A DNA stretch of 32,856 nt, taken from the IMG/VR virus record IMGVR_UViG_2526164692_000012; one strand, written 5' to 3'. The position numbers and the translations under genes were made by a program. Source of the stretch: a virus (taxonomy: Duplodnaviria; Heunggongvirae; Uroviricota; Caudoviricetes). The notes under the pieces are model-generated. The model was given only the letters and a program-made list of their open reading frames with translations, had not been told where the DNA came from and made no database searches. Position 1 is the stretch's first letter, and the number at the start of each line of letters is the position of its first letter. This document shows, piece by piece, positions 8,981 to 10,589 of this stretch.

Positions 8981-9859
8981 TCAGTAGTTATGTACTGAAG
9001 GAGGTAATTCTTTATTCTTAAGTCTCATCCATGCGGAAAGATTCGTTGGTCCGTCTGGCTCATTAATATCAACATCTCGTGTGTGATTGATTAAAACGTC
9101 TCTCGCCATTCCGATAACATACGAGAACTCATGGCCATAGTCGTAGCATCTGCCGGAATAGTTCGATTGAATTTGTTTTAGCGCCAGATACAGTTCGCGG
9201 AATAATGCCTGTGAGCGGTTGGCATAATCCCATAACCATACAAGGCTGTTTGCTTCTTTTGCAGAAAGCTCGTTGGTTTTCTTCTCTTGTTTGCCGATAA
9301 ATTCACCTTCAAGCACTACCCTGTGGATGTACTCTACGGCCAGCGGGATTTGTTCAATTGAAAGTTCATCAATGCTGTCAATACCAAAACGCTGATGAAC
9401 CATATTGTATGCATCGTCATAGCGAAGTCCTTTCTTTCCTACCAGCATGTTTACTGCATCGCGTAGCGGTGTTCTTTGCTCAACAGTGGTTTTCTTGCCT
9501 TTCACATACTCTCCATGTTTGCGAATCGAAGGCAGAACTTCTGCTGTTACCCACTTGCGGAATTTGTGCGGGACTGAACCTTTATTGACAGCATCGCGGC
9601 AGCGCAGAACCAATGTATACATACCTGATTCGCTAACAATGCTTAGATTCTGCTCACCACCAAGGGTGTAACTTAAAGTTACTCCCTTTTCATCGTCATC
9701 AAGTGCAGTAAGCGCCTTGCGTGAGTTAGTCAGAGTTAAAGCATCACAAACATCTTTTGCCACAAACCACGGCTCACCGCACTTGTTGATGACGCGGATT
9801 TCACTGTCGCCGAATTTGAAGATGGTGAAATCGTTTTGTGCCTTTGCTATACTTTTCAT
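8981..9859 (-). CDS. ant: Antirepressor Ant (BRO-N/KilA-N N-terminal domain plus C-terminal Ant domain), about 292 aa
   Basis: N-terminal [30 protein letters not shown] is a typical BRO-N/KilA-N motif; position downstream of arc and upstream of the tailspike as in P22 immI. Start placed at the Met preceded by AGGA; the ORF track extends to a GTG at 9925. Confidence 0.75.
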
Positions 9860-10091
9860 GTCAATATTTCCTAATCCGATTTGTTGATACCGAAGCCCTG
9901 ACTGTTCCCGCAGTTGGGGCTTCACTGTTTTGATTTCTTTGCCGCATCAAGCATCACTTCTGAAAACGTGCGCTTGCCACTGAATACTCTTTCTCTTCTC
10001 AATTTTTCGTTCGTGCCAAATGATTCGCCATGAACAAAATTTGGTCTCAAAATGGTAAGCGCAATCTCTTTGACTACTGCATCCAAGCAAA

Positions 10092-10232
10092 TCACACTGT
10101 TACCCCCTCCCTCTTCAGGCTGTCCAGCACCCGTTTAATTACTTCTGCGCTGAATGAGCGACACTCTTCCTTTGCTTTTTCTTCAAGAATTTTTTCTAGC
10201 TTCTCTGGCATACGCAGTGTTTTTACCTTCAT
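10092..10232 (-). CDS. arc: Arc-like ribbon-helix-helix repressor, 46 aa
   Basis: Hand-translated ORF MKVKTLRMPEKLEKILEEKAKEECRSFSAEVIKRVLDSLKREGVTV (below the 60-aa ORF-track cutoff); RHH pattern; located immediately upstream of ant and divergent from mnt. Confidence 0.6.
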   Translation of the reverse strand: MKVKTLRMPEKLEKILEEKAKEECRSFSAEVIKRVLDSLKREGVTV

Positions 10233-10337
10233 TGCATCCTCCGTTGTATGTGGTACGCATACATAGTATTTAGGTACGCATTGATAGTCAATAGATACCT
10301 ACATATCCTGTGGTAAAAAATTATTCAGGATGCGCCG
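10233..10337. promoter_or_regulatory. Divergent arc/ant and mnt promoter-operator region (putative)
   Basis: 105-bp AT-rich intergenic region between divergent arc and mnt; contains direct repeats GGTACGCAT (10252..10260, 10272..10280) and TGTGGTA (10249..10255, 10309..10315) that may be operator half-sites. Confidence 0.45.
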
Positions 10338-10589
10338 ATGTCTGATCGTAAGTACAAAAACCCTCAAGTGAATCTGAGGCTTCCTGTAGAGATAAAGGAA
10401 CGTCTTATTGAACTGGCTGAGGCTAATTCTCGTTCATTAAATGCTGAGATGGTAGCAGCACTTGAGGCATGGACTGAAAAAAATAAACATATTCAAGCAC
10501 TAGATCTTGCAACTATAGCATCGCGGTTGATAGAGCTTGAGCATGAGGTTGAGAAGTTAAAATGTATGCATGGCAACAGTGAAAAATGA
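10338..10589 (+). CDS. mnt: Mnt-like ribbon-helix-helix repressor, 83 aa
   Basis: N-terminus with RLPVEIKERLIELAEANSRSLNAEMVAAL resembles P22 Mnt (same length, RHH followed by coiled coil); divergent from arc-ant. Confidence 0.7.
   Translation: MSDRKYKNPQVNLRLPVEIKERLIELAEANSRSLNAEMVAALEAWTEKNKHIQALDLATIASRLIELEHEVEKLKCMHGNSEK

Follow-up and report, generated by a model that had tools for sequence, protein, structure and literature searches.

The 32,856-nucleotide stretch of DNA analysed here (IMG/VR virus record IMGVR_UViG_2526164692_000012; hereafter the window) carries a P22-like (Lederbergvirus-type) prophage inserted in the tRNA-Arg gene argW, and the whole window is 100% identical to Escherichia coli O104:H4 outbreak-lineage chromosomes (e.g. 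NZ_CP027394.1, 1428762-1461617). Between positions 8981 and 10589 lie an antirepressor gene (ant), the antisense RNA sar and the repressor genes arc and mnt, and this locus is probably a standard P22-type immI region, or 'ant moron', that is silent and passively retained in a recently crippled prophage. The initial annotation had described ant-arc-mnt as an intact module with arc-ant divergent from mnt as in P22. This arrangement was borne out by coordinates and by Pfam, PHROG and PDB matches, and intactness was confirmed at the sequence level: no frameshifts or stops were found in ant, arc or mnt, Ant is 99% identical to that of phage Kapi1, the Arc and Mnt alleles are shared with other loci and the regulatory block between arc and mnt has the consensus sequence. 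From left to right, the features of the module are:

8944..8963, minus strand: intrinsic terminator-like hairpin just 3' of ant, with an 8-bp stem, five GC pairs and a TTTTTAT tail
8981..9859, minus strand: ant, antirepressor of 292 amino acids, ATG start, full length, called by PGAP
9825..9853, plus strand: Psar-like promoter lying within the opening codons of ant (GTGAAA, 17 nt, TATACT, TG-extended)
9861..9926, plus strand: antisense RNA sar, with complementarity to the leader and ribosome-binding site of ant
9892-9923, plus strand: sar terminator hairpin of 14 bp
9922..10095, minus strand: ORF57, a putatively coding open reading frame of 57 codons, with a GTG start overlapping the arc stop (GTGA) and a GGAGG-like site upstream
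10092..10232, minus strand: arc, ribbon-helix-helix repressor of 46 amino acids, first gene of the Pant operon
10245..10263: near-palindrome of 19 bp, TGTATGTGGTACGCATACA, immediately following the Pant -10 and covering the predicted start
10263..10291, minus strand: Pant-like promoter, TTGACT (10291-10286), 17 nt, TACTAT (10268-10263), directed toward arc-ORF57-ant
10267..10305: imperfect inverted repeat, its 18-nt arms 78% complementary and its centre at the shared -35 region
10281..10309, plus strand: Pmnt-like promoter, TTGATA, 17 nt, TATCCT, its -35 overlapping the Pant -35 on the opposite strand
10338..10589, plus strand: mnt, ribbon-helix-helix repressor of 83 amino acids with a C-terminal coiled-coil-like tail, divergent from arc-ant

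The antirepressor gene had been called as the 8981-9925 open reading frame with a GTG start; the start at 9859 is preferred because an AGGAAA ribosome-binding site lies 8 nt upstream of it and the sar match begins directly after it. The protein matches PHROG 245, 'anti-repressor Ant' (2.6e-111), and consists of an N-terminal Bro-N domain (Pfam PF02498, 6.8e-20) and a C-terminal P22_AR_C domain (PF10548, 2.9e-28). Residues 122-292 (171 amino acids) are 84% identical to residues 130-300 of P22 Ant, whereas the N-terminus lacks a Pfam match to the P22_AR_N domain found there in P22 and shows no similarity to P22 Ant residues 1-129. Such N-terminal domain swaps are frequent among the Ants of related loci. 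No solved structure for any Ant relative was found by sequence search. P22 likewise has an annotated terminator just 3' of ant.

The antisense RNA, missed by the initial annotation, matches Rfam family RF00262 over the full model (1-68) with 63.7 bits (E 2.7e-12), above the gathering score of 43, and the extended -10 of its Psar-like promoter, TGCTATACT, is identical to that of P22 Psar. The arc stop of P22 lies immediately next to the 3' end of sar, whereas here arc is separated from sar by a 165-bp insert (9927-10091), also missed previously, that is absent from P22 and Kapi1. The insert contributes most of ORF57, a putative gene that would be translationally coupled to arc through the GTGA overlap. 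ORF57 matches phrog_17642 end to end (1e-41); phage phiv205-1 also carries it, as do IMG/VR loci L025, L026 and L056, the three insert-bearing phage contigs being 22.6-41.2 kb in length; most relatives of the module are without the insert. Its relatives in a set of 5.8 billion proteins form only 10 near-identical clusters, and the codon changes among them (one synonymous, two non-synonymous) represent a divergence too small for a test of selection. It is not called by PGAP and has no match in Pfam or PADLOC.

The insert bears on the possibility that the module no longer functions although its reading frames are open, for instance through uncoupling of arc and ant by ORF57 or through inactivation of Ant by the substitution P225L. 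The insert is missing from most relatives, and Ant residue 225 (9185-9187) is Leu here but Pro in P22, Kapi1, phiv205-1 and an E. coli O145 prophage. However, the same insert occurs in phiv205-1 and three phage contigs, position 225 tolerates Gln in phage CUS-3, and with reading frames free of frameshifts and stops and a consensus regulatory block, a dead module is considered extremely unlikely.

Both repressors belong to Pfam family PF03869 (Arc, 3.4e-8; Mnt, 2.9e-10). Arc also matches PDB entries for Arc repressor (2.5e-7 to 1.7e-3), and the best PDB match of Mnt is P22 Mnt (1MNT, 3.2e-5), a protein also of 83 amino acids with which it shares 47% identity over residues 5-36. For comparison, 79 IMG/VR loci encoding an Mnt of the window's type were collected; Mnt is identical to that of four of these loci and Arc to the allele of one (L056). 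Within this Mnt type the strand PQVNLRLP is invariant while the C-terminal tail diverges, with Mnt identity falling to 51%. Similarly, most Arc alleles retain a (K)VKT(L/I/V)RMP strand while their helices diverge, with identity down to 45%, and the N-terminus MKVKTLRMPE of the window Arc is common to the two main allele groups, whose mutual identity is 59%. The recognition strand PQVNLRLP in the N-terminus of Mnt (10338-10400) is nearer to that of P22 Arc (PQFNLRWP) than to that of P22 Mnt (HFNFRMP).

Between the two repressor genes, the block at 10245-10311 is near-invariant across 40 distinct intergenic sequences, drawn from 78 related loci, while both flanking 5' leaders vary freely. This holds even for loci with Mnt identity of 51-75% and Arc identity of 45-59%, and the version in the window is the commonest, with 11 identical copies. 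The block contains both promoters, the 19-bp near-palindrome and the 10267-10305 inverted repeat, the latter also holding a GGTACGCAT direct repeat with 21-bp spacing. The Pant spacer of P22 is occupied by Oarc, and the start site lies under Omnt. From their positions we infer that the palindrome is a candidate Mnt operator, at which binding would block Pant and spare Pmnt, and that the 10267-10305 repeat is a candidate Arc operator, because binding there would block both promoters.

By homology to P22, Pmnt would make Mnt constitutively, and probably also two envelope proteins encoded downstream, and Mnt bound to the palindrome over the Pant start would keep arc-ORF57-ant off. Loss of Mnt would give a short burst from Pant, after which Arc, bound to the repeat spanning the shared -35, would shut down both promoters and sar would pair with the ant ribosome-binding site to block ant translation. 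Since Mnt, Arc and sar are all intact, ant is expected to be off in this strain. As the target repressor of the prophage itself is gone, any effect of Ant would be possible only on foreign lambdoid repressors, and only if control by Mnt failed.

The absence of a C2/cI-type repressor gene from the prophage, claimed in the initial annotation, holds. No cI or C2 gene is annotated by RefSeq/PGAP at the identical O104:H4 locus, and tblastn of P22 c2, c1, 24, 18, 12, 23, 13, 19, 15 and rha against the window gave no match, the sole match to P22 cro being a 14-residue chance match within the gene-16 homologue (E 0.094). In phmmer searches of 745 six-frame fragments, P22 C2, the CI of phage P13374, HF4s CI, Cro proteins and HF4s N gave no match at E<=1, and HF4s CII and P22 C1 gave one chance CII match (12.5 bits) in the small terminase gene. 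An overlooked cI-like gene in the prophage is thus ruled out by tblastn, six-frame phmmer and PGAP annotation. The expected site of immC is occupied by an insertion sequence (IS):

25365..26132, minus strand: IS1B, 768 bp, at the expected site of immC and neighbouring genes
26133..26282, plus strand: truncated early-left gene (Agt/'TolA'-like), the last 49 of 322 codons, cut by IS1

On its other side IS1B adjoins an orf80/DUF2560 homologue beside the terminase genes. In the intact relative HF4s, a small membrane-protein gene, the genes for N, CI, Cro and CII, and replication genes precede the gene for the 322-amino-acid protein. The 9-mers flanking IS1B (25356-25364 and 26133-26141) differ, TGTGATGGC versus CGTAGAGCA, and because no 9-bp target duplication is present, the sequence points to loss of immC through an IS1-associated deletion with approximately 12 kb gone. 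This deleted span would comprise N, cI, cro, cII, the replication and nin genes, gene 23, the lysis genes and the late promoter. A simple IS1 insertion is ruled out by the missing target duplication together with the absence of approximately 12 kb of expected genes.

Further deletions were found at the same place in sister O104:H4 strains. In strain 1070/13 the window is matched up to 9242 and again from 25365, and the missing segment (9243-25364) includes the first 206 ant codons, sar, arc and mnt. In strain 2009EL-2050 (locus L089) the match breaks off within the tailspike gene, after 8615, and restarts at 25365, the loss of 8616-25364 taking the entire immI module; strain 2009EL-2071 keeps the full module. 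The deletions in 1070/13 and 2009EL-2050 are two independent IS1-adjacent events at the same IS1 end, and the latter is listed by Ahmed et al. as 'Prophage elements deletion by IS' (PMC3486847). Beyond this mention of IS-mediated prophage-element deletion (Ahmed 2012), nothing was found in the literature on the O104:H4 immI locus.

In the lineage that keeps it, the module would have survived the immC deletion simply because the late operon separates it from the deleted region. The immC-less configuration occurs in one clone only, at 100% identity and with sequence decay nowhere, and the late genes retain a P22-like order with every one annotated as intact. Since a late operon rendered useless by the loss of gene 23 is equally intact, and since only a single clone is involved, retention of immI is no sign of selection and reflects the short time since the deletion, rather than demonstrated selection.

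Several points weigh against a silent P22-type module. The silence of ant is drawn from homology to P22, and the operators were assigned by position only, the likeness of the Mnt strand PQVNLRLP to that of P22 Arc pointing the other way. The two -35 hexamers overlap here, whereas the P22 promoters overlap almost completely, and the ORF57 insert and Ant L225 may have effects on the module. In addition, mnt transcripts were undetected in Kapi1 lysogens (PMC12922286), and immI variants may therefore be regulated differently from P22. Kapi1 (E. coli MP1), a viable phage isolated as a temperate virus, is near-identical to the window in ant-sar but carries other arc and mnt alleles (39-43% identical); its regulation data are therefore not transferable and speak neither for nor against silence of the module here.

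The module also resembles that of P22 in gene order and orientation, in its position between a gene-16 homologue (ending at 11426) and the tailspike gene, in its 83-amino-acid Mnt, in the presence of sar and in the 84% identity of the Ant C-terminus (171 amino acids). The predicted layout of Pant, with one candidate operator between or over its -35 and -10 and a second at the start site, would be that of P22. It differs from P22 in the Bro-N domain of Ant in place of P22_AR_N, in an Arc of 46 rather than 53 amino acids that is too diverged for tblastn, in unrelated operator sequences and in the genes that replace orf59a and sieA. The module is a mosaic: 8881-9932 is 97.4% identical to Kapi1, with the likeness ending at 9932, the insert is 92% identical to phiv205-1 and 10102-10591 is 93.9% identical to CUS-3.

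The 'ant moron' of CUS-3 (from E. coli K1 RS218) encodes an Mnt 94% and an Arc 98% identical to those of the window. It differs in the N-terminal part of Ant (49% identity overall), in lacking the ORF57 insert and in having two tandem mnt genes, one of the window's type and one of P22 type. CUS-3 was described in the epsilon34 genome paper as apparently without arc (PMC2629481). An intact, unannotated arc of 46 codons, its product being the one 98% identical to the window Arc, was observed on the minus strand at 2791-2928 of the CUS-3 locus (L002), inside the 'bsq2 boundary sequence'.

A near-identical ant-sar region was also found in a different type of phage. In E. coli O145:H28 RM12761 (L088, 3999-5657) this region is 96.3% identical at the DNA level, Ant is 97.6% identical and a divergent Arc-family pair is present. 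There the module is flanked by tail genes L and K in a lambda-like, siphovirus-type prophage, and its arc and mnt are only 68% and 33% identical. Because nearly the same ant-sar region sits in lambda-like prophages, the immI cassette appears to move between phage types as a moron. Matches to ant at 95-99% DNA identity were observed in hundreds of E. coli genomes, including O157:H7.

Downstream of mnt, at 10586..11411 on the plus strand, are two genes encoding a 104-amino-acid protein and then a 161-amino-acid lipoprotein. The former has a signal-peptide-like N-terminus and a start that overlaps the mnt stop (ATGA), and both genes, which occupy the position of P22 orf59a and sieA, are probably part of the mnt operon. 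The proteins match phrog_19844 and phrog_6067, neither of which has an assigned function. They could be exclusion or conversion proteins still expressed from the remnant. Neither these two proteins nor Ant, Arc, Mnt or ORF57 had a PADLOC match, and a defence-system role for any of them is therefore unsupported.

These genes raise the possibility that the module is kept by selection for the products of Pmnt, with Mnt, as an immunity factor active in trans, silencing ant of incoming P22-like phages that have the same operator and thereby guarding resident prophages against induction, and with the envelope proteins providing exclusion or conversion. Consistent with this are the overlap of mnt with the gene for the secreted-type protein, the lipoprotein gene next to it at the sieA position, and the linkage of mnt and both downstream genes as a trio in many phage contigs. 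The operator block is moreover widespread in E. coli P22-like phages, so that this Mnt would be effective against many incoming phages. Against it, the two PHROG families have no assigned function and no PADLOC match was found, the remnant exists in one clone and is undecayed throughout, so that no selection signal is readable, and the sister strains lost mnt and its downstream genes too. Such selection is regarded as unlikely, and passive retention of a silent module remains the preferred reading.

LexA-controlled antirepressors form a separate type, exemplified by those of Gifsy, by Tum of 186 and by AntC of N15. No LexA box turned up near Pant when 8901-10700 was scanned; the only CTG-N10-CAG in this region lies inside the sar hairpin and agrees with 9/20 consensus positions. 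SOS control of ant as in Gifsy is ruled out by this absence. With the Gifsy/Fels antirepressors (Lemire et al. 2011) the module has in common the concept of an antirepressor able to act on the repressors of other prophages. The Gifsy/Fels proteins are LexA-controlled, target small non-cleavable repressors and are needed for induction, whereas ant in the window is under Mnt, Arc and sar control, has no LexA box and encodes a member of another protein family.

The initial annotation had proposed that the orphan module is an inter-prophage induction switch, in which Ant would inactivate co-resident lambdoid repressors, such as that of the Stx2a phage, and so modulate induction. The idea of cross-talk is not new: the repressors of L, lambda and 21 are reportedly targets of P22 Ant, and a coupling of prophage induction through Ant has already been put forward as speculation by Lemire et al. 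(PMC3121763). Such a role is consistent with the 84% identity of the last 171 Ant residues to P22 Ant and with the occurrence of this Ant allele at 96-98% identity in lambda-like O145/O157 prophages, the latter indicating that the allele is not tied to P22-type repressors. The host does contain potential targets, namely the CI of Stx2a phage P13374, which is S24/LexA-type and 37% identical to P22 C2, and the repressors of further lambdoid prophages listed by Ahmed et al., O104:H4 carrying several lambda/21-like prophages (Ahmed 2012, PMC3486847).

However, a switch of this kind lacks an input signal, with no LexA box and no known inducer of Mnt, and Mnt, Arc and sar are all intact. In P22-like phages late-promoter read-through reaches ant (PMC2629481, PMC12111858), but here such read-through is impossible, gene 23 and Plate having been deleted. 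The Ant N-terminal domain is unlike that of P22, so that the target range cannot be carried over, and the Stx2a phage carries antirepressor genes of its own. The module was lost twice in sister O104:H4 lineages, and strain 2009EL-2050, which is without it, still releases plaque-forming phage on induction, although the source prophage is unstated (PMC3486847). Taken together these observations do not sustain the proposed switch, which is judged very unlikely. There is only the slightest chance that in the 2011 outbreak clone orphan Ant might escape Mnt, Arc and sar and inactivate CI of the Stx2a or other lambdoid prophages, raising SOS-independent induction and toxin release.

A 15-bp attachment (att) core, CTGCAGGGGACACCA, is present at both prophage ends (3358-3372 and 31153-31167), and the genes between them include:

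3534-4691: intS, integrase, intact
4920-6830: acyltransferase-family gene encoding 636 amino acids, between intS and the tailspike gene
6901-8880, minus strand: tailspike gene
30879-31079: torI, Xis-like, intact

The ejection, tail, head and terminase genes lie on the minus strand up to 25260 in the RefSeq annotation, and to the right of IS1B follow the truncated early-left gene, cIII, kil, erf, abc, ead, eag and the Xis-like torI. With att cores, integrase and TorI all kept, the 27.8-kb remnant may still excise. In P22-like phages, O-antigen modification genes sit between intS and the tailspike gene, and the 636-amino-acid acyltransferase gene at this position would be a conversion gene, likely still functional in the remnant.

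The locus is thus probably a well-understood phage regulatory cassette left behind in a prophage undergoing decay, and its annotation by the RefSeq pipeline already exists. An effect of Ant on the Stx2a prophage would have a bearing on toxin release, but nothing found here points that way. The Arc strand MKVKTLRMP, the Mnt strand PQVNLRLP and the 10245-10311 block define an immI specificity class common among the P22-like phages of E. coli, CUS-3 being one of them. The O104:H4 prophage is a clear case of stepwise IS1-driven prophage decay, and its natural series of strains, with the module intact in 2009EL-2071 and deleted in 1070/13 and 2009EL-2050, is suited to the old question of Ant function and cross-prophage action.

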